NCBI GenBank assembly: GCA_964617195.1
Contig: CAZTVK010000019.1
Coordinates: forward strand, 225,019-289,018
Length of the DNA: 64,000 nt
Direction: 5' to 3'
Source: an uncultured Methanosarcinales archaeon
GTDB lineage: Archaea > Nanobdellota > Nanobdellia > Woesearchaeales > ARS49
Positions within the stretch are counted from its first letter, which is position 1, and the number at the start of each line of letters is the position of its first letter. The notes beneath the pieces were generated by a model. That model ran no database searches. It worked only from the letters and a program-made list of their open reading frames with translations, and was not told the origin of the DNA. Positions 855 to 60,063 of this stretch are shown in pieces. The translations under genes were made by a program, and so were the position numbers.

Positions 855-894
855 GTCAAAAACCTTTATAAAGCCTCCTCTTTCAGACTAACAC

Positions 895-2370
895 ATGAGT
901 AAATCGTGGGTGGGGCTTACAACAGTAGTGCTATTCATATTAGCTGCCAGGCTATACTTCGCCTTCCAAACACCCTATTACACCTCAGACACAGCATACC
1001 TGGAAATCAGATCAATAGAAAGCCTGATGCAAGGCCAACTCCTCTGGCAAGACCCACTAGGCAACGGAGGAAGAACTCTTATCAGAAGCCCAGTGTTTGA
1101 CGCAATCCTGGCATTTTTCGCACTCTTCATACCATACGCGCTCAAAATAATACCAAACATCTTCGCATCACTCCTCATAATTCCGGCATTCCTGATAGCA
1201 AAAAAACTAACAGACAACACGAACATATCACTCTTCTCAGCACTGCTCGCAGGACTAGTCCCAGCATACTTCTCACACACATTCAACCACGTAGCAACCC
1301 ACACGCTATCTCTGACCCTTTTCTTTTTCCTAGTCTACGCCTGGCTCAACATACCATCAAGACCATGGATTTACACATTCCTCACAGTCCTCCTCGTATT
1401 CGTATTCCTCAGCCCGCTATCAATAATCCTAGTATTAAGCATCGGAGTATACCTCGTTCTAGCAGCGCTTGAACAAATCAAACCAAAAGCAGCAGAATAC
1501 GAACTCGGACTCTTCTCAATATTTTTCGCACTATGGGCACAATTCCTCCTATACAAAAAACTAATACTCTTCCACGGACCAAGAATAATCTGGCAAAACA
1601 TACCAAACGAACTCTTTTCAGCATTCTACTCAAACGTCACAATACTAGGAGCAATAGCACAAATAGGAATCTTCCCTCTAGTGGACGGAACATACGCGCT
1701 TTACAAAACGGCATTCAAAGAACCACGCAAAGAAACACTAATGCTTTTGAGTATAACAATCGTCTCAGCGCTAACACTCTGGTTCAAACTAATCGACATC
1801 ACCACAGGATTCATGCTCCTCGGAACAACACTCGCCATAATATTCTCCAAATCACTAATCATTACAAAGAACTATTTCAATGAAACAAAAATCAGAAAAT
1901 ACACACCGATGATACTCACACTGATCGCAATATCAGCATTCGCCACAACGGCCTACCCAGCATACACGCAAACACAATCACAACTACAACAAACCATAAC
2001 CCATGAAGAAGTCACGGCACTTACTGAACTCCAAAACATAACACCAGAAAACGCAGTGTTCATGGCACCAGCATCATACGGAAACTACATAACAGCAATC
2101 GCAAAAAGAAAAAACGTAATCGACACATACTTCTTCCTCCAGCCACGCGCAAACGAAAGATACCAAGATGCAGCGCGCATATACAAAACAACATTCGAAA
2201 CAGAAGCAGTAGAACTTCTAGACAAATACAAAGCGATGTACATAGTAGTGCCTCCGGGAACGAAAGACCTCGCCTATGGAAACGGGCTATGCTTCAAGAG
2301 AATACACGCCACAAACATAATCATATACAGAAAAGACGCATCCTGTGAAGTCAAGGTGGTCGCACGATGA
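895..2370 (+). CDS. Multi-pass membrane protein, GT-C-fold glycosyltransferase-like (STT3/PMT/ArnT superfamily-like), paralog 1
   Basis: 491 aa; ~10 predicted TM helices N-terminal, soluble C-terminal domain; first loop D-x-x-Y…R motif; paralogous to next ORF; no WWDYG motif. Confidence 0.5.
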   Translation: MSKSWVGLTTVVLFILAARLYFAFQTPYYTSDTAYLEIRSIESLMQGQLLWQDPLGNGGRTLIRSPVFDAILAFFALFIPYALKIIPNIFASLLIIPAFLIAKKLTDNTNISLFSALLAGLVPAYFSHTFNHVATHTLSLTLFFFLVYAWLNIPSRPWIYTFLTVLLVFVFLSPLSIILVLSIGVYLVLAALEQIKPKAAEYELGLFSIFFALWAQFLLYKKLILFHGPRIIWQNIPNELFSAFYSNVTILGAIAQIGIFPLVDGTYALYKTAFKEPRKETLMLLSITIVSALTLWFKLIDITTGFMLLGTTLAIIFSKSLIITKNYFNETKIRKYTPMILTLIAISAFATTAYPAYTQTQSQLQQTITHEEVTALTELQNITPENAVFMAPASYGNYITAIAKRKNVIDTYFFLQPRANERYQDAARIYKTTFETEAVELLDKYKAMYIVVPPGTKDLAYGNGLCFKRIHATNIIIYRKDASCEVKVVAR

Positions 2371-3725
2371 AAATACATATTTTCAGCATATTCGTACTAG
2401 CGCTTGTAATGATAATGCTACCACTACATCTCAGATTCTCACACCACAATCCAACACTAGCAGGAACAGAACCATACTACCACGCCCGCATGGCCATCCA
2501 ACTCTCAGAAGGCAAAATTCCAACAACAGATACGGCAATCATTTCAGGAAGACCATACACGCTAAACCCATATCATGTGATTCTGGCAGCAGCATACAAA
2601 CTACTAGGACCCCTTGCATTCAACCTTCTCCCACCAATATTCGCACTCCTGAGTTTCATCTTCGTATGGCTGCTAACAAAAAGACTAGCAATACCAGAAC
2701 ACGTACAACCATGGATACTTCTCGCATACGCTTTATCACCACCACTACTAGCAACAAGCATAATCGGAAACCCATACTCATTTGTTTTAGCATTACTCAC
2801 AGGAGGCGCCCTTCTGCTCCTAAACCATTGGTGGATACTAGGAATGATCGCAACAATAATCGCAGCACTATCAGGACCAGTATACGCCATCGCAGCAATA
2901 GCATTCCTGCTAATCCTAATCCTCACAGTAAAAAAAGAAACAAAAAACCTCTCAATAACAGCCTTCATATGTTTCATACTACTAATACTGAACTATTCAC
3001 CAGCATACGTCCCGCACGACAGAGGAATACTACAATACATCAGCGACCTTGGAGGAACGTACGGGTTCAGCATATTCGCGCTAATGCTCGCAATAGTAGG
3101 AGCAATCCTGATCTGGGAACACAAACAAAAATACTACGGAGCCTACGCAGTCTTCATGATATTCCTAATCTCAAGCTTCTTCTTCCCAGGAATGCTAGTC
3201 TTCGCAAACATACTAGTCTCAGGCCTCGCAGGAGTAGCCCTGGCATCACTTGCACAAAGAAAATGGAAACTCACATTCCTCAGACAAGCAGCACTGCTAG
3301 TACTATTCTGCGGACTATTATTCAGCAGCATATCACACGCAGTAATACTCGCGGACATGCCACCAACGATGTCATTCTTCAAAACAATAGAGTTCAAACC
3401 CGGAGTAATACTCACCCATGAAAAATACGGGTTCTGGATAGAATCAGCAGGACACACAGCAGTCATAGACCAACTATGGAAAGAACTTCCAGATGCGGAA
3501 GACCGCATATGGGACACAGCAGCACTCTTCAGCTCAACAGACCTGCAAAAAACAAAAATACTCCTGCAAAAATACAACATAACACACATACTGATAACAC
3601 CTGAAATGCAGCACGGACTCTTATGGGAAAGAGAACAAGACGGTCTTGATTTCCTCGTCGAAAACAGCGAAACGTTTAAAAAACTAGAAACAGGCTCAAA
3701 TACCAAGGTGTGGAGAATCAGATGA
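2367..3725 (+). CDS. Multi-pass membrane protein, GT-C-fold glycosyltransferase-like, paralog 2
   Basis: 452 aa; ATGA overlap with previous gene; same architecture; first-loop motif EPYYHARM resembles AglB/STT3 EL1 (DPxYHxR) but no WWDYG. Confidence 0.5.
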   Translation: MKIHIFSIFVLALVMIMLPLHLRFSHHNPTLAGTEPYYHARMAIQLSEGKIPTTDTAIISGRPYTLNPYHVILAAAYKLLGPLAFNLLPPIFALLSFIFVWLLTKRLAIPEHVQPWILLAYALSPPLLATSIIGNPYSFVLALLTGGALLLLNHWWILGMIATIIAALSGPVYAIAAIAFLLILILTVKKETKNLSITAFICFILLILNYSPAYVPHDRGILQYISDLGGTYGFSIFALMLAIVGAILIWEHKQKYYGAYAVFMIFLISSFFFPGMLVFANILVSGLAGVALASLAQRKWKLTFLRQAALLVLFCGLLFSSISHAVILADMPPTMSFFKTIEFKPGVILTHEKYGFWIESAGHTAVIDQLWKELPDAEDRIWDTAALFSSTDLQKTKILLQKYNITHILITPEMQHGLLWEREQDGLDFLVENSETFKKLETGSNTKVWRIR

Positions 3726-4348
3726 AAAAACAAACACTATTAACAACAATCCTGCTCGTCTGCGTAGTATTCGTACTCGGAATAATTTTAGGCAACTCCT
3801 GGAACAGCGCAGAAACAACAGAAGTATCAAAAGTATTGCGTCAATCAGAACTCGACGCGGAAAGCTTTCTGGCAGAACAAGAACTCTTTGAAAGCTTTGA
3901 AACAAATTGCGCACTAGCCGAAAAACGCCTGAGCTCGCTCAGCGAAGAACTATTGAAATTAGGCAAAGTCCTAGGCGCAGACGATGCCCAAGAAAAACTC
4001 GGAGAGGAAAACTACGGCTTCCTGAAAAGAAAATATCACTTGATGCAAATACGCACGTACATTCTGGACAGAAAATTACAAGAAGACTGCGGAAGCAAAA
4101 CAAACGTCATACTATACTATTTCAAACGGAAAGACGCGCCCAGCGAACAACAAGGAAAAATACTTGACGAACTAGTAGGACAATACCACCTGCACGTCTT
4201 CGCAATCGAATACAGATACTCAAAAGAACTGGAATTCTTGGAAGACTATTACGAAATAAAAGACGCGCCAGCACTCGTAGTGAATTTCGACAACACGAAA
4301 ACAGGACTGGTCACCAAAGAACAACTAATCCCGCTCCTCCATGGATGA
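3710..4348 (+). CDS. N-terminally membrane-anchored extracellular protein with degenerate thioredoxin-like fold; paralog of N-terminal module of the next gene
   Basis: 212 aa; one N-terminal TM (LLTTILLVCVVFVLGIIL); shares FLKRKYxL…ECxK…YFxxxD…QGxIL…APxLVVN pattern and two conserved Cys with 4341..6464. Confidence 0.5.
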   Translation: MENQMKKQTLLTTILLVCVVFVLGIILGNSWNSAETTEVSKVLRQSELDAESFLAEQELFESFETNCALAEKRLSSLSEELLKLGKVLGADDAQEKLGEENYGFLKRKYHLMQIRTYILDRKLQEDCGSKTNVILYYFKRKDAPSEQQGKILDELVGQYHLHVFAIEYRYSKELEFLEDYYEIKDAPALVVNFDNTKTGLVTKEQLIPLLHG

Positions 4349-6464
4349 AAAAATAAAAATACTCGGCAGAAGCCTACTTCTGACAATATTGATCTTCGCC
4401 GCAGGAATACTGCTCAACCACACTTTTGACGCATTCAGAATATCAATCATAGAAGACGTCATGACAGAACACGAAATAAACACAGAAGCGTATAGAGTAG
4501 AACGCTTCTTCACAGAAACCTTTGGAGAAGAACAATGCGACATGATGGTAGCCAGAATCTCAGACCTGAAAAAAGAAGTCAGAAAAGTAGGAGAAGACCT
4601 GGGAAGCTACTCGCGCTTCAGCTTCTTCAGACGAAAAGACTACGATTATTTGAAACGAAAATACTTTCTCCTGGAATTAAGATTTCTAGCACTAATACAA
4701 AAAATCAACAAAGAATGCGACAAACCATACCTCCCGATAATATTCTTCTACGAAATAGACCAAGACGAAAGCGAACGCCAAGGATTCATACTCCAAGACC
4801 TAAGCGAAGACTACGACCAGAACCTGATAGTGCTAACCCTTGACAAAGACTACGAAGATGAGCCATTAGTAAAAATACTCGCTGAAAACTACAACGTCAC
4901 ACAAGCACCAACGATAATAATAGATGAACAATCAATCCCAGGACTCGTTTACACAGGACAACTCAACGCGAGCATACAAAAATTCTTAAAACGCGCAGAC
5001 CCATACGCGCAAAGCATAAATTTCAATCTCGTGCCAGAAGCAGCCGGCATAGACAAACAACGACTGCTAACCCAGCTCGAAAACATTGCCAGCAATGAAA
5101 AAGCAGACCTATGGGCGCGAGCAGACGCCACACTCATCATCGGAAGATTGACAACCAATGATACACTTATCTGCGAAAGCCTACAGTTCTACGACCAAAT
5201 AAACAGCACAAGCCACGAAGAAAAAGCATTAATCTATGAAACCAGCGCCTCACTCGGCTGCGGAAGAAACAGACAGGCATTCCTGAAAGCAGCAGCAAAA
5301 GAATGGAAAGCAACCGGAAACACCTTCCGCGCAGAACTCCTCGAAAAAATATCAACAGGAACAAGACAAAAAATCAATTTCGACAAAGCAAACAACGCCA
5401 ACACAACAGTAATCACCGGATACAACACACCAATCACGCCAAAACTTGTGAAAACAAACGCAAGTTCAGTCATCATAGGAAAAACAACAATAACACTGGA
5501 TAAGGACAGCGTTATTATCTCTCAAGACGACCGCGTTTACCGCGACTGGCTAAGCGGACAAGTAGCAAACCCATACGGGCCAACAATACTAACAACATTC
5601 TCAGAAAGACTGACGTATAACCAGACAGAATTACTTCCAGAAATAGGATGGCACGAAGGCGGAAGAATAAAAGAGCTCAAAACCATAAATTTCACGCACA
5701 TACCAGCAGTCGGAACACTAGTCGCCCGCAGCAAAGACAGATGGTTTGCGGTAGACAACAATGGAACCTTCAGATTTGAAGTGCCAATCGACAAACTAAG
5801 CTATCCAACCACGCGTTTCCTACGCAGAGATTTAGCAGTAATAATAGACACCCATGGCGTAAACATGCTCGTCGAACAAGCAATAAGATACAACGCAACA
5901 ACAGTAGTCAGCGACTGCGACCATCCAGGAAAAGTCTACGCGGCAAAATACCTAAGCGAACACGGAATTTCAGTTGTTTGCTTCCCAGACAAATACGCAT
6001 ACCTAGCACTCGGACACAACCTGTCTCTAGTTGGCAGCCCTCCAACCGAAATCACACAAGACAAAGCAGTCATCGGAAACAGACCAATCAAAATAACAAC
6101 CAAAGACAAAATCGTCATTGCAAACTCAACAGACACAGCATACGCACTCTGGTACTACCAAACACCAGCATCATACTTCGAAACACTGACTACTGCCATT
6201 CCACTCAATGTCACGTACGTCAGCCTTGACAGTTTCGGACAAATGGACAAAATAACAGACAAAGCACGCGAAATCAAAGCCACAATCATAGCCACTCGCA
6301 TCTTCAACAGCGATGATTATTCAGCAATCAAAAAATGGCTTGACGAAAGCCCAGAAAGAAAAGTCATACTCTTCCACAGCTCTTCATACCCCTACGGACA
6401 AAAAATATTCAGAGAATACACAAACCAAACAACATTCGACGATCCAAACCCAGAATTCATATGA
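4341..6464 (+). CDS. Large membrane-anchored extracellular protein (surface protein candidate), N-terminal module paralogous to previous gene
   Basis: 707 aa; N-terminal TM anchor; >12 N-x-S/T sequons in ~500-aa C-terminal region; no recognisable catalytic motifs. Confidence 0.55.
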   Translation: MDEKIKILGRSLLLTILIFAAGILLNHTFDAFRISIIEDVMTEHEINTEAYRVERFFTETFGEEQCDMMVARISDLKKEVRKVGEDLGSYSRFSFFRRKDYDYLKRKYFLLELRFLALIQKINKECDKPYLPIIFFYEIDQDESERQGFILQDLSEDYDQNLIVLTLDKDYEDEPLVKILAENYNVTQAPTIIIDEQSIPGLVYTGQLNASIQKFLKRADPYAQSINFNLVPEAAGIDKQRLLTQLENIASNEKADLWARADATLIIGRLTTNDTLICESLQFYDQINSTSHEEKALIYETSASLGCGRNRQAFLKAAAKEWKATGNTFRAELLEKISTGTRQKINFDKANNANTTVITGYNTPITPKLVKTNASSVIIGKTTITLDKDSVIISQDDRVYRDWLSGQVANPYGPTILTTFSERLTYNQTELLPEIGWHEGGRIKELKTINFTHIPAVGTLVARSKDRWFAVDNNGTFRFEVPIDKLSYPTTRFLRRDLAVIIDTHGVNMLVEQAIRYNATTVVSDCDHPGKVYAAKYLSEHGISVVCFPDKYAYLALGHNLSLVGSPPTEITQDKAVIGNRPIKITTKDKIVIANSTDTAYALWYYQTPASYFETLTTAIPLNVTYVSLDSFGQMDKITDKAREIKATIIATRIFNSDDYSAIKKWLDESPERKVILFHSSSYPYGQKIFREYTNQTTFDDPNPEFI

Positions 6465-7867
6465 AACGAAACTATTCGCTCTACATAATTCTCGCTCTAG
6501 CATTAATCATACGCCTCATCTTTGCATTCTCATGGCACGAAGTCTGGTGGGACTCAGGAGTCTACATCGGCATGGGAAAACACCTGTATTCTGGAGGAGA
6601 AAACGGGCTATGGGAACACATACGCCCACCACTCCTACCAATAATGCTAGGCTTCCTATGGAAAACAGGCCTTTCACCAATACTCTTCGGAAGACTATTA
6701 GAAATAATATTCATGCTAGGCACAGTCTGGCTGACATACGAACTCGCATTACGCTGGTTTGAAAACAAAACAGCAATCATCGCATCACTTATCATCGCGC
6801 TCAGCCCAATATTCTATTATCTCAGCTTCCACCAATACAACGAAATCCCAAGCACATTCTTCGTACTACTCGCAATCTGGCTCTCACTCAAAGAAAAACA
6901 TTTCCTCGCAGGAATCTCAACAGGAATAGCATTCCTATCAAAATTCGCACCAGGAATGTTCGCAGGAATAATCATACTCTATCTCGCCATCAACAAAAAA
7001 TGGAAACCAACAATACTAACAGGAACAGGATTCGCAATAATAACATCACCCTACTTCATCTACAGCTGGATAGCATATGGAAGCCCGCTCGCAACCTTTT
7101 CAGCAGCACAAGACGCCATTGCTAACGTACTCGGCTGCAACGTATTACGCCACCAGCCATGGCACCAATACTTCTCATGGCTAATATTCAGCGAAACAAA
7201 ACTACACCTTCTAGCCATCATCGGCATATTCGCTCTTTACAAAAAATGGAAAAAACAACACTTACTATTTGTTTTCAGCTTAATCATACCATTGCTATAC
7301 TTCACACAACTCAACTGCAGAGACTACCGATACATCACACTCTTCCTGCCATTTGTTGCCATACTCACAGCACTAGGCATTGCCTGGATATACGAACAAT
7401 TCAAAGTAAAGAAGAACTTGGCATTTGTTATACTCACCATTCTCTTATCAGCATGGATGCTTAACACAACAATCAGATATTACTACGCAAATGAACTCCA
7501 ACAACCAGACACAACAGCAGAAGAATACTTCCACTATCTCTCAGACAAAAACATTACAGGAGAAATCTGGACAGCAAACCCAATTATTGCAGCTTACACT
7601 GACGAAAAACTTGAGAAAATCTATTATCCGGTCTATGACCAAGACGTGCAGAATAGATTCATTGATTACGTCACACTACATAATAAAAAAATCGGCGCAG
7701 TTCTCCTCGACAATTGCGGAGGAGGAATAATTTGTCCTTCTGCTGACCAGAATTGCTTGCAAAAAACAGAACAACTCATCAATCTTCTCGACAAAACATT
7801 CACAAGAACATTCGACAAACAAACAGGAAGATGCTGGTACAGAGTCTGGCTCATTTCTTCAGATTAA
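6461..7867 (+). CDS. GT-C glycosyltransferase, PMT/ArnT-like (GT39/GT83-like), dolichyl/polyprenyl-phosphate-sugar dependent
   Basis: 468 aa; multi-TM; first-loop motif HEVWWDSG resembling PMT DE(V)HFG motif; C-terminal soluble domain similar to the two upstream paralogs. Confidence 0.6.
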   Translation: MKRNYSLYIILALALIIRLIFAFSWHEVWWDSGVYIGMGKHLYSGGENGLWEHIRPPLLPIMLGFLWKTGLSPILFGRLLEIIFMLGTVWLTYELALRWFENKTAIIASLIIALSPIFYYLSFHQYNEIPSTFFVLLAIWLSLKEKHFLAGISTGIAFLSKFAPGMFAGIIILYLAINKKWKPTILTGTGFAIITSPYFIYSWIAYGSPLATFSAAQDAIANVLGCNVLRHQPWHQYFSWLIFSETKLHLLAIIGIFALYKKWKKQHLLFVFSLIIPLLYFTQLNCRDYRYITLFLPFVAILTALGIAWIYEQFKVKKNLAFVILTILLSAWMLNTTIRYYYANELQQPDTTAEEYFHYLSDKNITGEIWTANPIIAAYTDEKLEKIYYPVYDQDVQNRFIDYVTLHNKKIGAVLLDNCGGGIICPSADQNCLQKTEQLINLLDKTFTRTFDKQTGRCWYRVWLISSD

Positions 7868-8357: not shown

Positions 8358-9476
8358 TTGTTTTTAAAAACCCCTGTGTTTGAAACACACATGGACGACG
8401 TGCTAGAGGAACACATACGTATAAGTGCAGAAAAAGGCCTTTCACGAATCGAAATCAAACAATTCCTTCTAAAAGCAGGCTGGCCAGAATCACAAGTAAC
8501 AACATACCTTGAAAAAAGCTTCAAAAAACTCGAAAAAGGCACAATATTAAGAGCGCACGGACTCTCAAAAAACTTTGAAGACCACCAAGTCCTCTCAAAT
8601 ATCGACTTTGAAATCAAAAGCGGAGAAATCTTCGGCCTAATCGGAATGAGCGGAGCAGGAAAAACAACACTGCTCAACCTATTAGTAGGATTCCTCAGAC
8701 CAGACCAAGGAGACGTCGTAATGGCACTCCAAGACGGCACAACACGAAGCGTATACAAAAATCCGCATTTAATCAGGCAACACATAGGATTCTCAACACA
8801 AACACCAAGCTTTTACGGAAAACTAACAGTAAGAGAAAACCTCGAACACTTCGCAAAACTCTACCACCTAACAGAACCAGACCTGACAAGACGCTGCAAC
8901 GCACTCCTAGACCTCGTCGGCCTAAAAGACGCAAGAGACGCAACATCATCACACCTCTCAGGAGGAATGCAAAAAAGACTAGACATAGCCTGCGCACTAC
9001 TGCACGACCCAAACATACTAGTCCTAGACGAGCCAACAGCAGACCTCGACCCAGTACTAAGAAAACAATTCTGGGAACTAATAAAACAAATCAACCAAAA
9101 AGGAACCACGATAATACTAGCATCACACTTCCTCGCAGAAATAGAACTCCTCTGCAGCAGAATAGCAATACTGCAAAACAAAACAATAGCCGAACTAGGA
9201 ACAGCAGAAGAGCTAAGAAACATCTACTCCAAAAACTACGAAATATACCTAACCACAAAAACACAAGACTACACCAAAATACTGGCAGAACTCGAAAAAA
9301 GAAAACGCTATTTCGTCAAAGCAACACAACAAGCAGGAGAACTAATCATAGAAACACCAGTCCCAGAACAAGTCCTGCCAATACTATCTTCCTGCCTTGA
9401 GAAAGAAAAAATACAAAGCCTGCACGTCGAAAGACCAACACTAGGCAAAGTCTTCGAAGCAGTGGTGCGACGATGA
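8358..9476 (+). CDS. ABC transporter ATP-binding protein with ~55-aa N-terminal helical extension
   Basis: Walker A GMSGAGKTT, signature LSGGMQKR, Walker B ILVLDEP, H-loop; alternative ATG start at 8391. Confidence 0.85.
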   Translation: MFLKTPVFETHMDDVLEEHIRISAEKGLSRIEIKQFLLKAGWPESQVTTYLEKSFKKLEKGTILRAHGLSKNFEDHQVLSNIDFEIKSGEIFGLIGMSGAGKTTLLNLLVGFLRPDQGDVVMALQDGTTRSVYKNPHLIRQHIGFSTQTPSFYGKLTVRENLEHFAKLYHLTEPDLTRRCNALLDLVGLKDARDATSSHLSGGMQKRLDIACALLHDPNILVLDEPTADLDPVLRKQFWELIKQINQKGTTIILASHFLAEIELLCSRIAILQNKTIAELGTAEELRNIYSKNYEIYLTTKTQDYTKILAELEKRKRYFVKATQQAGELIIETPVPEQVLPILSSCLEKEKIQSLHVERPTLGKVFEAVVRR

Positions 9477-11260
9477 ACTCAGACGTACTAGAACTAGTAA
9501 AGAAAAACCTGAAAAACCTAATCAGAGCAAAAGCAGGATCACTCGTCGTAATACTAGGACCACTAATCGTAATCTTCCTCGCAGGACTCGCGTTCGACAA
9601 CAGCAACGCTTACGCAGTAAAAATAGGAACATACACACCAGAACCAACAGACATCACAACAACATTCCTAGACCAGCTAAGAACACAATTCAAAGTAAGC
9701 GAGTACGAAACAGAAGAAGACTGCGTAGACGCCATCAAAAAAACAGACATCAACACGTGCATGTCCTTCTCACCAGACTTCACAATAGGAAAACCGCCAC
9801 AAAACCAAATCACATTCTACGTAGACTATTCACGCATAAACCTCGTATGGAGCATAATGCAAACCATGACCCAGAAAGTCGGAGAGAAAACACTCCAAGA
9901 AAGCCAAAGTTTGACAAAACTGCTCATAGACACCCTTGAATTCACGCACAACAAAATCAAAGACGAACGAGAAATCATAGTCAAACTAGCAACAGAAAAC
10001 GAACTAATGAACAAAAACGTCCAAGACCTCGCAGCAGAACTCGGCGACATGAGCCTGGAATTTAACGAAAACGAATTCGGAGTCCAGAACATAACCAGCG
10101 CAAAAACACAAGTCAAACAATGGATGGAAAGCACACTCACAATAAGCGAAAAAGGATTGTCAAAAGCAACAAACTTCATCAGCGCAGCAGACGCACTAGT
10201 AAAAGGCTCAGCAGCAGGACAACAAGTAAAAGACAAACTCCTCGAAAACTTCCAAAAAAGCTTAGACGAAATCAAAAAAGCCAAAGCAGAACTCGCTGAA
10301 ACAAAAAACCTCACCAAAGAATCATTCCTCAGATTTGACAAACAAATGATAGAATTAACAGAAACCATCACAATGACAAAAGACAGACTAAATGAAGCAG
10401 ACACCAGCAGACAATTAGGACTAAGAGTGCTCGAAGCCATAACAAGCCTACTTGACAAAAGCCTGATCAGCATAAGCGACGTACAACAAGCACTAAACGA
10501 CATAGACAATCGGATAAGCGCCATAGAAATCAAAGACCCAGAAGCAATCACGCAGCCAATCGTCACTTCAATCAAGCCAATAGTACAAGAAAAAACCTAC
10601 CTCAACTACCTCTTCCCAATACTCAGCATACTAATCATAATGTTCACAGCCCTGCTGATCACGCCAACACTAATCATGCTTGACAAGAACAGCCCTGCCA
10701 GCTTCAGAACATACATGACACCAGTAGCAGACACCAGCTACGTAATATCAAACTTCATCACAGCCTCAATACTGCTTTCCCTGCAAACAATAATCGTACT
10801 AGCAATCGCGAGCGTATTCTTCACCAGCCAAGTTATTTCTAATATCCCAGAAGCATTAGTGCTACTAGTCATCATCAACTCAGTTTTCATCCTAATAGGC
10901 ATGATAATCGGCTACGCATTCAACAGCGAAGAAGCAGCCACACTAGGAGGAGTAAGCATCGGAGCAGTCTTCCTCTTCCTCAGCGACGTAATCATCCCAT
11001 TAGAAAGCATGCCAGAATCATTCGCATACATCGCCAGCTTCAACCCATACGTTCTAAGCAGCCAACTACTCAGAAGAGCACTAATCTTCGACCAAACATT
11101 ACTCAGCATGCTCGGAGACATAATAATAATGCTAGGATACATCGTAGCCCTCGCAATACTCGCAACCGGCATTTACCTGCTCACCAGACGCTATTCAATG
11201 CAACAACTAATGAAAGCAATCACGCCAGTATTTGCGCGCGTAAGATTCAAGAAAAAATAA
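9473..11260 (+). CDS. ABC-2 family permease with large extracytoplasmic coiled-coil domain (YhgE/Pip-like)
   Basis: 595 aa; TM1, ~330-aa helical extracellular domain, 5 C-terminal TM helices; ATGA overlap with ATPase. Confidence 0.7.
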   Translation: MNSDVLELVKKNLKNLIRAKAGSLVVILGPLIVIFLAGLAFDNSNAYAVKIGTYTPEPTDITTTFLDQLRTQFKVSEYETEEDCVDAIKKTDINTCMSFSPDFTIGKPPQNQITFYVDYSRINLVWSIMQTMTQKVGEKTLQESQSLTKLLIDTLEFTHNKIKDEREIIVKLATENELMNKNVQDLAAELGDMSLEFNENEFGVQNITSAKTQVKQWMESTLTISEKGLSKATNFISAADALVKGSAAGQQVKDKLLENFQKSLDEIKKAKAELAETKNLTKESFLRFDKQMIELTETITMTKDRLNEADTSRQLGLRVLEAITSLLDKSLISISDVQQALNDIDNRISAIEIKDPEAITQPIVTSIKPIVQEKTYLNYLFPILSILIIMFTALLITPTLIMLDKNSPASFRTYMTPVADTSYVISNFITASILLSLQTIIVLAIASVFFTSQVISNIPEALVLLVIINSVFILIGMIIGYAFNSEEAATLGGVSIGAVFLFLSDVIIPLESMPESFAYIASFNPYVLSSQLLRRALIFDQTLLSMLGDIIIMLGYIVALAILATGIYLLTRRYSMQQLMKAITPVFARVRFKKK

Positions 11261-20348: not shown

Positions 20349-22514
20349 TTAATTAATCGCCATCACAGCGCCGCTCACAATTCTCGAAGCGATAATGTTG
20401 AACAACAACATCACAACACCAGAAATAAAACAATACAACAAAGTGCTTTTAATCAAATTATTGCCGAGCAAATAACGCTCCTGCAGCTTATCAGCGCCAT
20501 TCTCAATTCCATTAGACAAAACAGTCAAAATGTACACTATCTGGAAAACATAAATTCCAACAACAGCCTGGAAATAATAAGTAGGAACACCATCACCAAA
20601 GAAGTTAGCCAACGCGCCAATCTGAGTGCCAGCCTGCTCCTCGCCCAAATTAGTGATATTCTTCGACAAATTACCCAAAATGTAAGTAATCATAGAGGTA
20701 ATTCCGATAACAATCCCTGAAATAGCAGGCGTCAAGAAAGCAATCTGAGACTTCATGTCAGAAATGATATCGGCCATCAAATCCTTCAACCGCTCGTTCA
20801 CCTTATGAATCTCCTTAATGTAACGCGCAATATTCAACAACGCCTGCGCAGCAATCAAAGGACCCTTCTTAACGCTCTCAATAAGCACTTTCATGGAAGA
20901 CTGAATAATCGCGCTCGGGAAAGCAGCCAAAGCACCCTGCTGCGGGTTAAAAAGAGCATCGCGCACACTCATGCCCAATCTGCTAATATTCGTAGCAACC
21001 AACTTGAAGAACCGACCAGAAGTTGATTCTTCCATAACTTCAGCAACTTTCTGGAACGCAATCTCGGCAGGCAAACCATCACCCAAACGGTTACCAAGCT
21101 GGAACAAAGCAGAAGAAAACTCGTCCTCCAATTTTTTCGCTTCCTCGCGAATCTTAATCACGTTCTGACTGCGCAGCCTATAGTACAAACCAAAGCTCAT
21201 AGCCAGACTAATCGGGAAAAACAAAGACAACAAACTCGCGCCAAGCCCGAACGGACCAATAATCAAGTCCTCAACCTTCATGCTTTCCTTATAGCCCAAC
21301 AACTCAAAACCAGCAAAAGAAATATCATAGGTTGGATTAACAAAATAAATAATCAAAGGCGAAAGTGCAAGAACAAGCATTGCAAAACCGACAATAAGCG
21401 CGATAAAAAAAGGAGGAATCACTATTTCAGCACCACCAACCTTTATTATAACATTATTATACTTCTTCAAAGCCGGATTAATCTCAGAAATATCCGTATC
21501 ACCATAACCAGTCGGCCTCTTAGACAAAACATTCTTGCCCATAAAGTAAACAGTCAAAGGCAACACGACATTATACAATGCAGCAATATGATACCAGGAA
21601 ACTCCCTCCATAAAACTAATCATCAAAGGCAAAATTACCAGGCCCAAAATAGGCAGGATGACTCCCAACATGTGCAGCATGGTGATAGGACCCTTCAAGT
21701 TCTGCGCGTAATGCAACATCTTCTCATACGTCTCATCAAGAATAACATCAAGACCCTTGTCCAACAAGCCCAAACGCCTCTCCTCAGAAGTCTCATACAA
21801 AGAGCTCTGCACAAGATGGAAAGACTCAACAAACTCCATGTTAGACGAACGCCAACTCTCCAAATAAGACGAGAGAGAATCCTTGATGTTCTCAAACCTA
21901 CTGTTCTCAACATCCCAAATGACCTTGCGCAAGTCCAAACTCAAAGGAGGAGCCAAATGCTCGGAAGCAAACTCAATAGCGAGCTCCAAATTGGAAGTAT
22001 GACGCATGTACGTAACAACATAAAAAATGCACAACACCATCTGATTACTAGACTTCATCCTCCACGTATTAGCCATGAACTCAGGAGTCTTTTGCAACAA
22101 AAAAATACCGGAAATACCAATGGCAAGACCAAACAACGTGAAAAAAATACTGTTCAACACAAACAGAGAAAATATCAAGCTAACAAAAATGAACGCAACA
22201 GGCACAACAATGCTCGCAGCCAACACGCCAGCAGGAGTAGTCTGCAAATGAGCAATATTAATCAAATCCTGAACCTGCGCAGCCTTCTCAGGCTTAACCT
22301 TCATCTTCAACAATTTCTCACAAAAATTACACAAGTTCTCGTACGCAGTCATATGAGGAGGCAAGAGCTCCTTCCTGAAAATATTGTACTCGCGACTATA
22401 CAACTGCCCGCTTCCAGCAGAACCCTGAATGTCCAACTGCTCAGACAACTTATGCTTGTACTTCTCAATCAAATCCTGTTCAGCAGTCACTTTCTCACCG
22501 CATTCTTCAACCAC
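20349..22514 (-). CDS. FlaJ/TadC-like polytopic membrane protein of archaeal type IV pilus/archaellum assembly (T2SS-F domain)
   Basis: 721 aa; cytoplasmic helical domains alternating with TM clusters; immediately downstream of secretion ATPase gene. Confidence 0.75.
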   Translation of the reverse strand: MVEECGEKVTAEQDLIEKYKHKLSEQLDIQGSAGSGQLYSREYNIFRKELLPPHMTAYENLCNFCEKLLKMKVKPEKAAQVQDLINIAHLQTTPAGVLAASIVVPVAFIFVSLIFSLFVLNSIFFTLFGLAIGISGIFLLQKTPEFMANTWRMKSSNQMVLCIFYVVTYMRHTSNLELAIEFASEHLAPPLSLDLRKVIWDVENSRFENIKDSLSSYLESWRSSNMEFVESFHLVQSSLYETSEERRLGLLDKGLDVILDETYEKMLHYAQNLKGPITMLHMLGVILPILGLVILPLMISFMEGVSWYHIAALYNVVLPLTVYFMGKNVLSKRPTGYGDTDISEINPALKKYNNVIIKVGGAEIVIPPFFIALIVGFAMLVLALSPLIIYFVNPTYDISFAGFELLGYKESMKVEDLIIGPFGLGASLLSLFFPISLAMSFGLYYRLRSQNVIKIREEAKKLEDEFSSALFQLGNRLGDGLPAEIAFQKVAEVMEESTSGRFFKLVATNISRLGMSVRDALFNPQQGALAAFPSAIIQSSMKVLIESVKKGPLIAAQALLNIARYIKEIHKVNERLKDLMADIISDMKSQIAFLTPAISGIVIGITSMITYILGNLSKNITNLGEEQAGTQIGALANFFGDGVPTYYFQAVVGIYVFQIVYILTVLSNGIENGADKLQERYLLGNNLIKSTLLYCFISGVVMLLFNIIASRIVSGAVMAIN

Positions 22515-24739
22515 TCATTCCACTGGAAAAAGATGCGCTGGCTGTCCAACACACCAACTTCTTCCCGCACCTGCTCTGAAATCCTGTGGAACTCGTCATT
22601 CGCACGAATGTAAAAACCAGCCTCCAACAAATCAAAATTTTTCAGCTTGTTTGCAGTTGCTACAAGAGTCTCCTTAATCTTAGCCCTAAGCTGAATGTTA
22701 TCCCACACTGCGTCCCAATTGCCCGCCCACTCCTTAACACTGCCAGCCACAGACTTGATAACATCACTATCGCCCCTCAACAAATCATTTGTGGGAACGA
22801 GCGCATCAATCTGAGGATCATACTTGAACAAGTCAACAAAACCATTCTCGGTCAGAGGGTCGTCCTCCCACAACTTACGCACTTCAGTAATCTGAGTAAC
22901 CCTTCTGTAACGATGAATTCCATCAGGACTTCTAACAGGATTAGCAACAACAATAAGATCAGTTGCTTTGAAACTCGTTCTCGGAACTCCCAAGTCGTTC
23001 ACGACACGGTCAAACACACCATACGGACTATCACCGTGAATCGTGCCGGCAACAACATTAGCCAAAGCACCAACACGCATAGCTTCATACAATGAACGCG
23101 CTTCAACACTTCTAACTTCACCAACAATCAAACTGGAATCGCCAAGACGAAGCGTACTACGAATGCCCTCATCAGCACTAACTTCAGTCGTGCCCCTCGT
23201 CAAAGCAGACGCGACCTTCATGCTCTGCACGTTATACCCTAATTTGCGCAAAGCATCAACAGGAAGCTCCAAAGTATCTTCTATTGTAATTATTCTCGAA
23301 CGGCGCATGATATCAACCATAACCGCGCCAAGCAAAGAAGTCTTACCCGAGCTTCTAGTACCAGCAACCAAAATAGTCCTGCTTCCATCAATCAAAAAGC
23401 TCAACGCGCCAGCAGCCAACGGAGTTAACATCCTAGTATTCATGAACAACGGCAGCGTCCACGGCTTGTCACGATGACGCCTAATAGAATACGCGAGACC
23501 TGTAGGATTCAAAGGAGCAGCAATAGCAGCAACTCTAGCGCGCGCTTGAGGCAAAACAAGCTCTGTATCAAGAATAGGATTAGCCTCGTCCAACGGCCTA
23601 CCAGAAAGCATCCTCAACTTTGAAGCCCAGCTCTCACCCTCAGGAGCAGTCGGAATAATATTTGTAGTGCAATCGCCAAAATCATTATGCACAATGAACA
23701 TCGGAATCCTGCCCATAGGAGAATTAATCGTGATATCCTGCACCTTATCATCCGCAAGCAAAACTTCAATCAAACCAAAACCAACAGTGTATCTAACCAG
23801 AATTTCAGCCAAATCATCACGATCCTTATTACGCAAGTGAATGTTACGATGATTTGACAATTCCTCCAACAAATCAGTACCAACACTCGTGAACACCTGA
23901 CGCATCCGCTGAGGATCAACAAACTCAGAACGCTTCGGCTGATGCTCAGACATAATCTTCCTGGCAGCATCCAACAACTCATACTTTTCCTCAGACAGCT
24001 TGAACTCAGGAGGAACCATATGGTAAAGATACTGCACTGTTTCCGGAAGCTGGAAAATAGTAATTTCAGTCTCACCAACCTGATAACTGGCCAATTCCTC
24101 GCCTTCTGAAGGGAAAGTCGCCATCAATTTAGTAAACATGAAATCAGGCTTGATCGTCGGAGAAAACAAACGGCGATAAATCGTCCTATCACCAGGCTGA
24201 AAACCCGGCAGATACGGCTGAGCGAGCTGGATCAACTTCGTCTGCTCAAGCATGCCAATAGTCTCTTGCAATAACCTGAAATAATTCTGCAAACACTGCA
24301 CGCCATCAGGAGTAGTAATATTCGCTTCAATCTGCCGTTTCTCCTCTCTAAGCAAACGCTTCAGCTCAACATACGCAGCAACAGGATCAGCCTTAAAAGT
24401 CCGATACAAAATATTCTGAATCAACGTATATCTAGGATTAATCCAACGCGCACACTCAGGCTTAGCAAGCATGCCATAAGCAAACTTCTGCTTCACCAAA
24501 TTCTTGTAAACAACCGCAAGCTCAGAAAGCAGTGCAACCTGGCCCTCATCATACTCAAAATCACGCTTTTGCACAAAAACAAGCTGGGTAACCATTCCAA
24601 CCTCTGACAACATGTCAATGGTCATACCCATCAAACGAGGCTCATCCTCCAAGCTAGGGAAAAAAGAGCAGCCTTCACAATCTACCCTGAGAATAATATC
24701 TTCCCCTTCACGAATAATATCGTACTTTCCGCACTCCAT
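22487..24739 (-). CDS. FlaI/PilB/VirB11-family secretion ATPase (type IV pilus or archaellum assembly), long form
   Basis: 750 aa; Walker A AGTRSSGKTS, Asp/His boxes, N-terminal ~200-aa extension with CEGC motif; TATA ~25 nt upstream on minus strand. Confidence 0.85.
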   Translation of the reverse strand: MECGKYDIIREGEDIILRVDCEGCSFFPSLEDEPRLMGMTIDMLSEVGMVTQLVFVQKRDFEYDEGQVALLSELAVVYKNLVKQKFAYGMLAKPECARWINPRYTLIQNILYRTFKADPVAAYVELKRLLREEKRQIEANITTPDGVQCLQNYFRLLQETIGMLEQTKLIQLAQPYLPGFQPGDRTIYRRLFSPTIKPDFMFTKLMATFPSEGEELASYQVGETEITIFQLPETVQYLYHMVPPEFKLSEEKYELLDAARKIMSEHQPKRSEFVDPQRMRQVFTSVGTDLLEELSNHRNIHLRNKDRDDLAEILVRYTVGFGLIEVLLADDKVQDITINSPMGRIPMFIVHNDFGDCTTNIIPTAPEGESWASKLRMLSGRPLDEANPILDTELVLPQARARVAAIAAPLNPTGLAYSIRRHRDKPWTLPLFMNTRMLTPLAAGALSFLIDGSRTILVAGTRSSGKTSLLGAVMVDIMRRSRIITIEDTLELPVDALRKLGYNVQSMKVASALTRGTTEVSADEGIRSTLRLGDSSLIVGEVRSVEARSLYEAMRVGALANVVAGTIHGDSPYGVFDRVVNDLGVPRTSFKATDLIVVANPVRSPDGIHRYRRVTQITEVRKLWEDDPLTENGFVDLFKYDPQIDALVPTNDLLRGDSDVIKSVAGSVKEWAGNWDAVWDNIQLRAKIKETLVATANKLKNFDLLEAGFYIRANDEFHRISEQVREEVGVLDSQRIFFQWNEWLKNAVRK

Positions 24740-43361: not shown

Positions 43362-43457
43362 AAGTCGGAATGGCAGTAGCAAGCATAATTGTCGTAATGG
43401 CAATATTCGCAAGCATGCTTATCTTGAGCGGCAGATTTGTTTTTATCACGTGAACTC

Positions 43458-44543
43458 ATGAAAGTTCTAATATATTCTGGCAGCAACTGGAACGGACTGT
43501 GGTCGCACAGCCATGAACTTGCAAAATATTTTGCAAAACACACCAAAGTAATCTTCCTCAGCGTGCCATCCTGCCAAGACCCAGCACATCCAAACATAAG
43601 CAAGAAAACAGAATATCCAATACCGAAGAACACAACAGTCGTATTCTCAGACAAAGTATTCCAAAAATACACGCTACTGTATCTCATCTACACACAGTTC
43701 TACACTATAACAAAGTTTTTCTCCCTGCCAAAAGCAGAGCACTTCTTCCTCTACAACACATACGACATCCCATTCTTCATACTGGCAAAGATTTTCGGCA
43801 AGAAAGTACACTTTATGTACATAGACGATTACCCGGCACTCGCAAAGCACCCACTCCTCAAAGCAATCGCCACAATCGGAACTTGGCTATTCCTCAAATT
43901 CAGCAAAGACGTATTCTGCACGGCCAAAGTTCTCGAGCAAAAAGCAAGACTACACAATGACGAAGTCTACTACGTACCAAACTCGGTAAATCTGGAAGAT
44001 GCAAAGGATATTCGCCCCAAAACAAGAAAAGAATTCATCATAGGATTCGTAGGCACAATAGGGCACTGGGTGAGAACAGACCAAATACTCGACATAGCAC
44101 GCGCATTCAAAGACGCAAAAATATGGATAGTGGGATCAGGAGAAGGGCTTGCAACACTGCAAAAACACAAAAAACAAGAAAACCTAAAAAACCTAGAACT
44201 CTTCGGATTCGTATCCCATCAAAAAATGTACGAGCACATGTCCCAATTTAACATAGCCATAATCCCGTTCTACATAAACGAGATAACAAACGCAGTATCA
44301 CCAATCAAACTATTCGAATACTGGCTTGCAAAAAAGCCAGTCGTGTGCACGAAAACAACAGAACTCGCACAATTCAAAGGCGAAGTGTTATATGCAAACA
44401 AGAGCGAAGAATTTATTAAACAACTCAGGATGCTTAAAAACAATTCCAAACAAAGAAAGAAGCTGGCAGAAAAAGGATACAGTCTGGTAATGGAAAAGTA
44501 CAACTGGAACAAAATGATAGAGGTTTACCAAAAAGCACTATGA
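43458..44543 (+). CDS. Glycosyltransferase family 4-like
   Basis: GT-B C-terminal domain with EX7E-like block (EITNAVSPIKLFEY); ATG 43458 (ORF-track start 43437 is TTG). Confidence 0.7.
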   Translation: MKVLIYSGSNWNGLWSHSHELAKYFAKHTKVIFLSVPSCQDPAHPNISKKTEYPIPKNTTVVFSDKVFQKYTLLYLIYTQFYTITKFFSLPKAEHFFLYNTYDIPFFILAKIFGKKVHFMYIDDYPALAKHPLLKAIATIGTWLFLKFSKDVFCTAKVLEQKARLHNDEVYYVPNSVNLEDAKDIRPKTRKEFIIGFVGTIGHWVRTDQILDIARAFKDAKIWIVGSGEGLATLQKHKKQENLKNLELFGFVSHQKMYEHMSQFNIAIIPFYINEITNAVSPIKLFEYWLAKKPVVCTKTTELAQFKGEVLYANKSEEFIKQLRMLKNNSKQRKKLAEKGYSLVMEKYNWNKMIEVYQKAL

Positions 44544-45700
44544 AACTCTGCATTGTTGTCGGAACACGGCCAGAAATTATCAAAATGGCGCCCGTTATTC
44601 GCGAGTGCCAACGCAAAAAAATAGATTTCTTCATACTCCACAGCGGACAGCACTATGACTACAAAATGGACAAGCTGTTCTTCGAAGAACTCGAGCTACC
44701 ACAACCAAAATACAACCTAAGAGTAGGCTCACAACCATTCAGAAAACACGTTGGCATGATGATGAAAGGCATGATGAAAGTCTACCTAAAAGAGCAGCCA
44801 GATGCAGTAATCGTTCAAGGAGATACGATAACAATCCTAATGGGCGCCATGGCAGCAAAAAGATGGGACATACCGGTCGCACACCACGAAGCCGGACTCA
44901 GAAGCTACGACCTTTCCATGCCTGAAGAAATAAACAGAACACTAACCGACCACCTTTCCGAATTCCTCTTCGCACCAACCCAAGACGCCATCAAAAACAT
45001 CAAAGAAGAAGGGCTAAACGCAAAATACCACTCAAAAACAGGAAATACCATCGTTGATGCGGTCTTACAAAACATCAAACTGGCAGACAAAAAAGTAAAC
45101 ATACTCAAAACTTTTCACTTGCAATCCAAAAAATACTTTTTAGTAACCGCGCACAGGCAAGAAAACGTCGACAGACCACAGCGATTACAAGGAATTCTTA
45201 CAGGACTCGGAAAAATAAAACAAGCCTATCCTGCTTATAAAATAATTTATCCAATGCATCCCAGAACAAAGAAAAAAATTGCAGAGTTCAAACTTGTAAT
45301 TCCGAAAGGAATACAGGTCACAGAGCCAGTCGGCTTCCTCGAATTCCTCCAACTAGAAAAAAACGCAGCGCTCTGCATAACAGACTCAGGAGGCGTCCAA
45401 GAAGAATCGAGCATCCTTCATACCCCCTGCGTAACAATACGGGATAACACCGAACGGCCAGAAACCATCAAAGCAGGCATGAACGTGCTGGCAGGAACAG
45501 ACCCAGACAAAATACTTTCCTGTGCCAAAACCATGCTGAACAAAAAAATAAAGTGGAAAATGGTATTCGGTGACGGTCATGCAGCAGAAAGAATAGTTGA
45601 AGAACTCGTACTACAAATAAAGAAAAGAAAAAGCCTCACAGAAAGAATGAAGTGGATAATGCGGCTTCTCAAGAAAAATATAAAATCATTCCTTGGGTGA
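44540..45700 (+). CDS. wecB: UDP-N-acetylglucosamine 2-epimerase (non-hydrolysing)
   Basis: 386 aa; N-terminus VVGTRPEIIKMAPV…HSGQHYD, typical WecB/MnaA family. Confidence 0.9.
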   Translation: MKLCIVVGTRPEIIKMAPVIRECQRKKIDFFILHSGQHYDYKMDKLFFEELELPQPKYNLRVGSQPFRKHVGMMMKGMMKVYLKEQPDAVIVQGDTITILMGAMAAKRWDIPVAHHEAGLRSYDLSMPEEINRTLTDHLSEFLFAPTQDAIKNIKEEGLNAKYHSKTGNTIVDAVLQNIKLADKKVNILKTFHLQSKKYFLVTAHRQENVDRPQRLQGILTGLGKIKQAYPAYKIIYPMHPRTKKKIAEFKLVIPKGIQVTEPVGFLEFLQLEKNAALCITDSGGVQEESSILHTPCVTIRDNTERPETIKAGMNVLAGTDPDKILSCAKTMLNKKIKWKMVFGDGHAAERIVEELVLQIKKRKSLTERMKWIMRLLKKNIKSFLG

Positions 45701-45703
45701 ATT

Positions 45704-46711: not shown

Positions 46712-46736
46712 ATAACAAACGCTCCCAGTAAGAAGC

Positions 46737-52688: not shown

Positions 52689-52690
52689 GT

Positions 52691-55354: not shown

Positions 55355-55355
55355 C

Positions 55356-57109: not shown

Positions 57110-57147
57110 AAGTCTACTCAGGGGCGTATTTAAATCTAACGTCTATC

Positions 57148-59057: not shown

Positions 59058-59069
59058 AGATACACCATC

Positions 59070-60059: not shown

Positions 60060-60063
60060 GTAA

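Follow-up and report, generated by a model that had tools for sequence, protein, structure and literature searches.

The window analyzed here, a 64-kb stretch of an archaeal contig (CAZTVK010000019.1), carries at positions 895–7867 five co-directional open reading frames (ORFs) on the + strand, P1 to P5, which may form a module for glycosylation of the cell surface. P1 (895–2370, 491 aa), P2 (2367–3725, 452 aa), P3 (3722–4348, 208 aa from an ATG start, or 3710–4348, 212 aa from an upstream GTG), P4 (4341–6464, 707 aa) and P5 (6461–7867, 468 aa) are joined at each of the four junctions by overlapping start and stop codons, in agreement with an earlier note on this DNA that had described five translationally coupled genes. 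The ATGA type of overlap given in that note holds for P1/P2 at 2367 and P4/P5 at 6461, and for P2/P3 at 3722 if P3 begins at the ATG and not at the upstream GTG, a start that agrees with the lengths of the P3 orthologs. It does not hold for P3/P4, which overlap by 8 nt at 4341.

Between P1 and the divergent radB lies a 40-nt spacer with a TATA-box-like TTTATAAA (864..871, + strand), ∼25–30 nt 5′ of the P1 start. Based on archaeal promoter geometry, TTTATAAA is a candidate operon promoter that would give rise to a leaderless or short-leader mRNA; a scan for bacterial sigma-70 promoters and intrinsic terminators was uninformative, as expected in an archaeon. In hydropathy profiles, P1, P2 and P5 stand out as polytopic proteins, and a single transmembrane helix (TM), N-terminal and with Lys/Arg ahead of it, is seen in each of P3 and P4. 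These positive-inside N-termini, together with conserved Cys pairs and an enrichment of sequons (see below), support a predicted outside-facing topology.

Three related GT-C membrane proteins

Taken as single sequences, P1 and P2 had no match in Pfam, NCBIfam or the PDB, and single-sequence searches of P1, P2, P3 and P4 gave nothing usable; the relationships of P1 and P2 emerged with family profiles. A P1 profile built from 38 sequences matched eukaryotic STT3 (3.7e-12), human STT3A (9e-10), STT3B, PglB (1.5e-6) and the C-terminal domain of AfAglB-S2 (7e-5). The STT3 matches fell in two stretches: TM1–4 with the first loop, where the P1 s-D-x-s-Y-f-x-l-R aligned on F-D-P-Y-F-N-Y-R of STT3A, and the C-terminal domain, where the aligned P1 stretch reads ..eeGhlitalakrknviD. 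The P2 profile matched the crystallized C-terminal domains of three Archaeoglobus fulgidus AglBs (3e-4), with the P2 LTHeeYGFWIE aligned on the AglB LSWWDYGNWI. Consistent with these alignments, the AlphaFold2 (AF2) model of P2 (pLDDT 92.7, pTM 0.90) found its best Foldseek matches in AfAglB-L (5gmy, 1.7e-9), yeast Stt3 (6ezn_F), human STT3A and PglB, with E-values of 1.7e-9 to 1e-5 and a TMq of 0.52–0.71; ALG9, DPY19 and ArnT ranked below these STT3-family proteins. P1 and P2 are themselves full-length homologs (hhalign, E 3e-34). Thresholded models were less informative: P1 and P2 of the window missed the gathering scores of Pfam STT3 (PF02516) and of the AglB/STT3 core domain, the 38 P1 relatives gave one STT3 match, two AglB_core-like matches and 11 PMT_2 matches, and when the P1 and P2 profiles were compared by hhalign with a single canonical AglB, from the relative L065 described below, the WWDxG region alone aligned, at low probability.

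Which features of an oligosaccharyltransferase (OST) do P1 and P2 keep? STT3/AglB/PglB enzymes are defined by WWDYG and DxD motifs. We audited 52 orthologs each of P1 and P2, from related genomes, for the motifs of glycosyltransferase family GT66, whose roles were taken from PMC7226087. The references were the first-loop catalytic Asp (PglB D56, AfAglB D47, STT3A D49), the second metal motif DxD/DxE/DxH (PglB D154/D156, AfAglB D161/H163), the TIXE/SVSE glutamate of external loop 5 (EL5; PglB E319, AfAglB E360) and WWDYG, which binds the +2 Ser/Thr of the sequon (PMC7226087).

The first-loop strings DTAYLEIR of P1, EPYYHARM of P2 and HEVWWDSG of P5, singled out in the earlier note, are all present. 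In P2 the first loop (E35–M42) places E35-P-Y-Y-H-A-R41 in register with D47-PWYYYR of AfAglB, and E35 is acidic in 42/52 orthologs. The first loop of P1 (D32–R39, with D32..Y35..R39) is shifted: D32, present in 41/52 orthologs, lies one residue upstream of the canonical Asp position, which is itself acidic in 29/52. P2 further has (Y/F)-I-S-D227-x-G (nt 3039–3053) in a long outside loop ahead of its last four TMs, with an acid at the D227 position in 51/52 orthologs, and this loop is a candidate equivalent of TIXE. Where P2 has its I-S-D loop, P1 has an invariant W233-Q-N235-x-P237 and no conserved acid. No conserved acid was found at the DxD/DxE/DxH equivalent of either protein among the 52 orthologs of each; S-Y-D-N-E-G of STT3A aligns on residues 132–137 of P1, which are occupied by S/T, P/V and Y/L.

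As the earlier note had it, the catalytic WWDYG of AglB is missing from all three membrane proteins. P-A-S-Y-G (nt 2068–2082) replaces it in P1 and T-H-E-K-Y-G (nt 3414–3431) in P2; a Trp at the WWD positions occurs in none of the 52 orthologs of either protein, the Gly and the downstream R...D alone being kept, and an acid is still found at the position of the WWD aspartate in distant P1 members (for example FWDEG and LDEG). Polar loop residues are under strong purifying conservation in both proteins (E203, N131, W-Q-N-x-P, R405 and D410 in P1; Y37, H39, S-D-x-G and D368 in P2). E203 and G396 of P1 are found in 52/52 orthologs, and its C-terminal alpha/beta domain, which keeps R405 and D410, has an invariant Cys pair, C466/C484. 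On the strength of their profiles and, for P2, of the predicted structure, we regard P1 and P2 as miniature, highly derived GT-C paralogs of the STT3/AglB/PglB family; P2 would have ∼11 TMs, compared with 13 in STT3/AglB. Because they fail the two defining features of GT66 OSTs, WWDYG and DxD, we class them as members of the STT3 superfamily and not as AglB orthologs.

P5 is the only one of the three membrane proteins to match a GT-C model in Pfam. It passes PMT_2 (PF13231; E 1.5e-12, 48.5 bits against a cutoff of 26.1), with weaker matches to GT87 (1.6e-5), Alg9-like and GT22, and its family profile matched GPI mannosyltransferase 1 (PIG-M) in the PDB (3e-4). Judged by these sequence matches, PIG-M, GT87 and GT22 point to a polyprenyl-phosphate-hexose donor for P5. 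Its first loop is marked by an invariant W30-D31..Y35.G37..K40..E52..R55-P56 (W30-D31 in 19 orthologs), and its soluble C-terminal domain is Cys-rich. P5 aligns with P1 (hhalign, E 1.6e-10) into the C-terminal domain, and from the alignments it appears to be a GT-C relative of P1, more distant than P2. The three membrane proteins are thus homologous GT-C proteins, as proposed in the earlier note. A generic PMT/ArnT-like label does not suit P1 and P2, which are derived STT3/AglB paralogs, recognizable only by family profiles and predicted structure.

The W-W-D string of P5 mimics the STT3 WWDYG and could mislead motif searches: HEVWWDSG (H26–G33, nt 6536–6559) reads WWDFG in one ortholog (L051, ∼2054). 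We considered whether WWDSG could be a displaced WWDYG and rejected the idea, as it lies in external loop 1 and not in the C-terminal domain; it is a first-loop motif of a PMT_2 subfamily.

P3 and P4, predicted to face outward

P3 and P4 share a module, as the earlier note had observed: P3 aligns with residues 4–208 of P4 at 28% identity (BLASTP, E 9e-24), and the P4 stretch up to residue ∼210 is a paralog of P3, both combining a single TM anchor with a helical hairpin and a thioredoxin fold. Both are type-II membrane proteins (P3, 3722..4348; P4, 4341..6464; both + strand). P4 has 260+ homologs, all in Woesearchaeota-type archaea and none annotated. Judging by the names that the homologs carry, the source organism belongs to the Woesearchaeota, a group of DPANN archaea. 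Five parts make up the AF2 model of P4 (pLDDT 88, pTM 0.83): long helices with a TM anchor, a thioredoxin fold (residues 131–216, nt 4731..4988), a helical repeat, a beta-rich subdomain and an alpha/beta subdomain. Residues 131–216 matched many thioredoxins in Foldseek (TM-score 0.6–0.79, root-mean-square deviation 1.7–4 Å), and the P4 family profile matched thioredoxins in the PDB (4e-4). The top Foldseek match overall was YbbN, which combines thioredoxin and TPR domains (4.7e-5, 241 aligned columns), and the YbbN alignment and the secondary structure of the model delimit a TPR-like helical repeat at residues 230–340 (nt 5028..5360), with invariant C278 and C307. TraF, a thioredoxin-fold family without CxxC, was weakly matched by 25/34 P4 homologs, at scores below the Pfam thresholds.

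In the position of CxxC, P4 has an invariant S144-E-R-Q147-G and P3 has S-E-Q-Q-G. P190 of P4 is invariant at the cis-Pro position, as are C66 and C126; in P3, C67, C127, Q-G and P187 at the cis-Pro position are conserved at ≥90% in 63 orthologs. Neither protein has the four C-terminal TMs of an Ost3/Ost6-type architecture, each having its single N-terminal TM. P3 and P4 are thus outward-facing thioredoxin-fold proteins that are predicted to be redox-inactive.

The remainder of P4 is a C-terminal domain of ∼340 aa (residues ∼370–707, nt 5448..6461) made of the beta-rich and the alpha/beta subdomain. Its alignment holds ∼65 invariant residues, among them the motifs DRVxRDW, GWHEGG, FxFExPxDKxxYPT, DTHGxNM, DHPxK, PDK, GSPP, YALWYYQTP, LFHSxxYPxG and FxDxNP. 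We found no sequence relative of this domain in Pfam, NCBIfam or the PDB, and a Pfam scan of 34 P4 homologs was blank over the C-terminal 480 residues. An exhaustive profile search of 1.84 billion (1.84e9) representative proteins returned 186 members, in which the domain stands alone or is fused to PMT_2, S_layer_C, TPR, Polysacc_deac_1 (CE4) or a YwiC-like membrane domain. The fusions to PMT_2 comprise two proteins of ∼920 aa (P0320, from a Woesearchaeote, and P0338) and a 921-aa gene product of the relative L065, where the fusion takes the place of P4 in the cluster. The strongest evidence on the role of P4 comes from these fusions and from the ATGA coupling of P4 to P5, which together speak for P4 as a functional partner of the PMT_2 enzyme and against a passive role as substrate. 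The C-terminal domain of P4 is a newly defined extracytoplasmic family that its fusions tie to GT-C glycosyltransferases.

The earlier note had counted more than 12 N-x-S/T sequons in P4, and we found 15. Composition-preserving shuffles gave 4.9±2.0, with 15 or more in 0/2000, and the presumed cytoplasmic proteins of the window have 0–1 sequons per 100 aa. At seven positions of P4 (N185, N209, N273, N373, N427, N518 and N595), the sequon is conserved in half or more of the 34 homologs; P3 has no sequon. Enrichment and conservation together suggest that P4 is probably N-glycosylated, which in turn suggests that a sequon-reading OST exists in these organisms.

The cluster in related genomes

In a scan of one genome per GTDB species, a P4 relative was found in 128 species, all of them Woesearchaeota- or Nanoarchaeia-type metagenome-assembled genomes. 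We sorted the ORFs of 80 loci with family hidden Markov models and used as denominator for gene order the 37 species loci with a full-length P4 and enough flanking sequence. All five families were present in 32/37 and the exact order P1-P2-P3-P4-P5 in 28/37, so that the island is conserved and linked in relatives. P1 and P2 were adjacent wherever both were detected, and P3 always lay directly 3′ of P2 or of a family 2 glycosyltransferase (GT2). The RadB, MBF1, ABC and CysRS flanks are also conserved, in 27/42 long loci. Because the wider neighborhood is conserved, co-linearity alone is weak evidence, and we relied instead on codon overlaps, rearranged loci and fusions. Linkage persists where the flanks are lost: two loci (L077 and L085) have a short P4 and P5 on one strand and P3-GT2-P2-P1 on the other, and in four (L056, L062, L068 and L070) a second GT-C, the GT2 and P3 are divergent from a short P4. 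One locus (L048) has a P4 ortholog (8978–11080) with the usual RadB/MBF1/ABC flanks, and P1, P2, P3 and P5 were not detected in its 17-kb contig; linkage may be broken here, or the partners may be very divergent. A divergent PMT_2-like GT-C of ∼460–515 aa without Pfam match, P5b, was seen in seven loci (L039, L042, L052, L056, L062, L068 and L070), placed between P3 and P4 or replacing P1/P2 upstream of the GT2.

The GT2, ∼410 aa long, sits between P2 and P3, its stop overlapping the start of P3, in 33/81 loci (∼40%), including L024 (8733–9977). It has a DxD motif and 3–4 TMs, and TED and QRxRW were present in 18/18 sequences examined. Its best NCBIfam match was PgaC_IcaA (1e-49 to 5e-54; 169–184 bits against an equivalog cutoff of 422), followed by NodC and CelA, and its PDB matches were PcManGT, a minimal cellulose-synthase-like enzyme, and BcsA. 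These motifs and matches to PgaC/IcaA, NodC and cellulose synthases indicate a processive-synthase-type GT2. In the clade of the window (L006–L023 and similar loci), P1–P5 are tightly coupled without it.

One relative bears directly on the relation of the cluster to AglB. In L065 (JAFGJW010000015.1, Woesearchaeota), a canonical AglB with WWDFG, SDNDI and the Pfam STT3 and STT3-PglB core domains lies 1.7 kb upstream of P1. The earlier note had held the island to be distinct from the canonical AglB, and the two indeed occur side by side here. Thus, P1 and P2 are additional to AglB, at least in this genome. The AglB and an NDP-sugar epimerase (1–2135) stand immediately upstream of P1-P2-GT2-P3-[PMT_2::P4C], P4C being the P4 C-terminal domain, and downstream of the cluster is a gene for a 1451-aa protein with fn3 and purple-acid-phosphatase-N domains.

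In the 64-kb window itself we found no WWDYG-type AglB string. Some 35 kb from P1–P5 lies a large glycan-assembly cluster (43437–63271). It encodes sugar-transfer and NDP-sugar functions (four GT4 glycosyltransferases, a UDP-GlcNAc 2-epimerase, a UDP-sugar dehydrogenase and three epimerase/dehydratases), two GFO/IDH/MocA oxidoreductases, a hexapeptide acetyltransferase, two DegT aminotransferases, two methyltransferases, a FemAB-like protein and a Wzx-type flippase. It resembles a WbpABDEI-type diacetamido-uronic-acid pathway with lipid-linked oligosaccharide assembly. A lipid-linked oligosaccharide pathway requires an OST or a ligase, and none is visible in the window besides P1/P2. Elsewhere in the window, on the − strand (20349–24739), a gene for a 721-aa protein without Pfam match overlaps one for a 750-aa T2SSE-type secretion/pilus ATPase, and the two may form a surface-filament or secretion module. 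The GC skew of the + strand is negative (−0.05 to −0.36) and the AT skew mostly positive throughout 1–64000; since the GC skew stays negative at 55–60 kb despite − strand genes, it is not purely a coding-strand effect.

Proposed function and comparison with known systems

What could be the function of P1–P5? We give a probability of about one half to the reading that the operon is a lineage-specific extracytoplasmic surface-glycosylation module that works in parallel to AglB and does not replace it. P1 and P2 have lost WWD and DxD but retain the GT-C membrane core, the C-terminal core domain and, in most orthologs, acids in the first loop, to which P2 adds an acid in its EL5-like loop; from this combination we infer that they move a sugar from a polyprenyl-phosphate-linked donor to an acceptor other than N-x-S/T. 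Always adjacent and translationally coupled, they probably act as a pair. P5 would add a hexose to the same surface acceptor, as its nearest characterized relatives use polyprenyl-phosphate-hexose donors. P3 and P4 could hold or present the acceptor as thioredoxin-fold accessory subunits, and the C-terminal domain of P4 may work directly with P5 by binding or modifying the glycan acceptor.

In this scheme P3 and P4 look like components of the machinery rather than mere substrates. The earlier note had suggested them as the probable substrates of the three transferases, and we consider it very improbable that they are simply that. Both proteins do face outward, and the three-fold excess of sequons in P4 (15 against ∼5 expected), with seven conserved positions, makes it a probable glycoprotein. 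However, P3 offers no sequon at all, P1, P2 and P5 lack the sequon-reading motif, and P3 partners the GT2 in lineages without P1/P2. A sole role as substrate also fits poorly with thioredoxin folds devoid of CxxC, with ∼65 invariant residues in the enzyme-like motifs of the P4 C-terminal domain and with the fusion of that domain to a PMT_2 GT-C in other species.

Several points weigh against the proposed surface-glycosylation module: (i) P1 and P2 lack two motifs that are deemed essential in characterized OSTs and could be inactive; (ii) the equivalence of the P2 loop to TIXE would follow from predicted secondary structure and the positive-inside rule; (iii) much of the synteny comes from genomes with the conserved RadB/MBF1/ABC/CysRS neighborhood and is not independent functional evidence; and (iv) ∼40% of related clusters, though not the 64-kb window, hold the synthase-type GT2, which would favor a polysaccharide over a pathway directed at proteins. 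The protein-glycosylation or surface-decoration system proposed in the earlier note thus stands as a likely outward-facing glycosylation module, and the GT2 places its protein acceptor in doubt.

The GT2 is one ground for a different pathway, to which we give a smaller but appreciable chance, in which the ancestral cluster makes a surface glycopolymer through a synthase-dependent beta-glycan system (for example GlcNAc-based). The GT2 would polymerize and export the chain with P3, always translationally coupled to it, as a PgaD/IcaD/BcsB-like membrane co-subunit. Binding or modification of the polymer would fall to the P4 C-terminal domain, and its branching or ligation to an anchor to the three GT-Cs; in the clade of the window the GT2 would have been moved or lost. 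The placement of the GT2 between P2 and P3, over the P3 start, extends to rearranged and P1/P2-less lineages, and the synthase signatures of its sequence, the fusion of P4C homologs to a CE4 polysaccharide deacetylase (one) and to an S-layer domain (another), and the missing WWD of P1 and P2 are all in keeping with such a polymer. Yet the GT2 is missing from the window and its whole clade, and the PgaC match is far under its equivalog cutoff. We know of no GT-C enzymes or thioredoxin-fold proteins in synthase-dependent exopolysaccharide systems, and the STT3-family enzymes characterized to date act on proteins. Could P1 and P2 instead be a real N-OST, a heteromeric divergent AglB without WWD, with P3 and P4 as Ost3/Ost6-like subunits of an archaeal multi-subunit OST? 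They share the fold and homology of the STT3 family, E35 and D227 of P2 would correspond to the pair of acids that hold the acceptor Asn between them in PglB/AglB, and distant P1 members keep the acid of WWD. The enriched P4 sequons suggest that N-x-S/T glycosylation operates in such organisms, and the lipid-linked-glycan assembly and flippase cluster of the window has no canonical AglB beside it, an absence that means little as only 64 kb of the genome were inspected. We nevertheless consider an N-OST unlikely, because L065 has a canonical AglB in addition to P1/P2, neither paralog has a DxD-type metal site, the WWD Trp is absent from 52/52 orthologs, and P3 and P4 have neither CxxC nor the topology of Ost3/6.

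The same motif losses could also mean that P1, P2 or both are catalytically dead, serving as structural or scaffold elements or as lipid-linked-glycan-binding subunits for P5 or another enzyme, with P5 as the sole active transferase. The first-loop acids are not invariant (42/52 for P2 E35, 29/52 for the canonical position in P1), and in P5 the first-loop Asp is invariant and the Pfam score exceeds the threshold. We doubt this explanation even more than that of an N-OST: the polar loop residues of P1 and P2 are under strong purifying conservation, the two are kept as a pair across at least 52 species, and other GT-C families function without a metal site.

A bolder form of the surface-glycosylation module, which we regard as speculative and unlikely, is a woesearchaeal multi-subunit OST-like complex in which a P1/P2 minimal-STT3 heterodimer joins the PMT_2 enzyme and the redox-dead thioredoxin subunits P3 and P4 to glycosylate a non-sequon surface acceptor. 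If true, this archaeal machine of STT3 plus thioredoxin-fold subunit would be either independent of the eukaryotic arrangement or its forerunner, and would bring a new mode of acceptor recognition and a new glycan-handling domain at the C-terminus of P4.

To our knowledge, all characterized STT3/AglB/PglB members are single-purpose N-oligosaccharyltransferases. A motif-less STT3 pair, kept in more than 50 Woesearchaeota species in an operon with a PMT_2 enzyme and thioredoxin folds lacking CxxC, suggests that evolution has repurposed the STT3 scaffold for another reaction or acceptor. DPANN archaea are thought to rely on surface contact with their hosts and, as far as we know, almost nothing is known of how their envelope is constructed; the operon is a testable candidate for envelope building in this group. 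In the literature on AglB, OST and glycosyltransferases of DPANN archaea and Woesearchaeota, we found no account of the P1–P5 cluster. What appears to be new here are unusual STT3 derivatives, accessory proteins and a domain family in a GT-C-based envelope glycosylation system.

How does this system compare with known ones? The closest structural and profile matches of P1 and P2 are the GT66 enzymes AglB, STT3 and PglB, including the short AglB-S1 and AglB-S2 of A. fulgidus. They share the GT-C fold, the C-terminal alpha/beta core domain, the first-loop register x-P-Y-Y-x-x-R and the G-x-(W/Y)-I...R....D that follows the WWDYG position. In contrast to these enzymes, P1 and P2 are small (452–491 aa and ∼11 TMs, against 590–970 aa and 13 TMs), have neither the WWD Trp nor DxD/DxE/DxH, occur only as an adjacent pair and, in at least one genome, side by side with a canonical AglB. 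The GtrA/GtrB/Gtr*, CsbB/GtcA/YfhO and Ppm1/Pmt systems pair a membrane GT2 with GT-Cs, as ∼40% of the related clusters do; unlike GtrB/DPM1, the GT2 of these clusters, which is not in the window, is of the processive QRxRW type found in PgaCD/IcaAD/NodC.

P3 and P4 resemble Ost3/Ost6 (TUSC3/MagT1) in being membrane-bound thioredoxin-fold proteins with an STT3-family partner, and a shared acceptor-holding role would be a functional analogy only: they have S-E-R-Q in place of CxxC and one anchor at the N-terminus where Ost3/Ost6 have four C-terminal TMs, and no sequence relationship was detected. F-plasmid TraF and Escherichia coli YbbN/CnoX (thioredoxin plus TPR), the best Pfam and Foldseek matches of the N-terminal half of P4, are redox-inactive or atypical thioredoxin folds that act on envelope proteins; P3 and P4 differ from them in being membrane-anchored, archaeal and encoded in a glycosyltransferase operon, and all scores were below the Pfam thresholds. 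Finally, P5 is closest to the PMT_2/GT39-GT83 enzymes (protein O-mannosyltransferases and ArnT) and to the Dol-P-Man GT-Cs PIG-M, PimE and ALG9, by its PMT_2 score above the gathering cutoff, its invariant first-loop Asp and its weaker matches to GT87, GT22 and PIG-M, and is set apart from them by a Cys-rich C-terminal domain of its own, distantly alignable with that of P1, and by its coupling or fusion to the C-terminal domain of P4.

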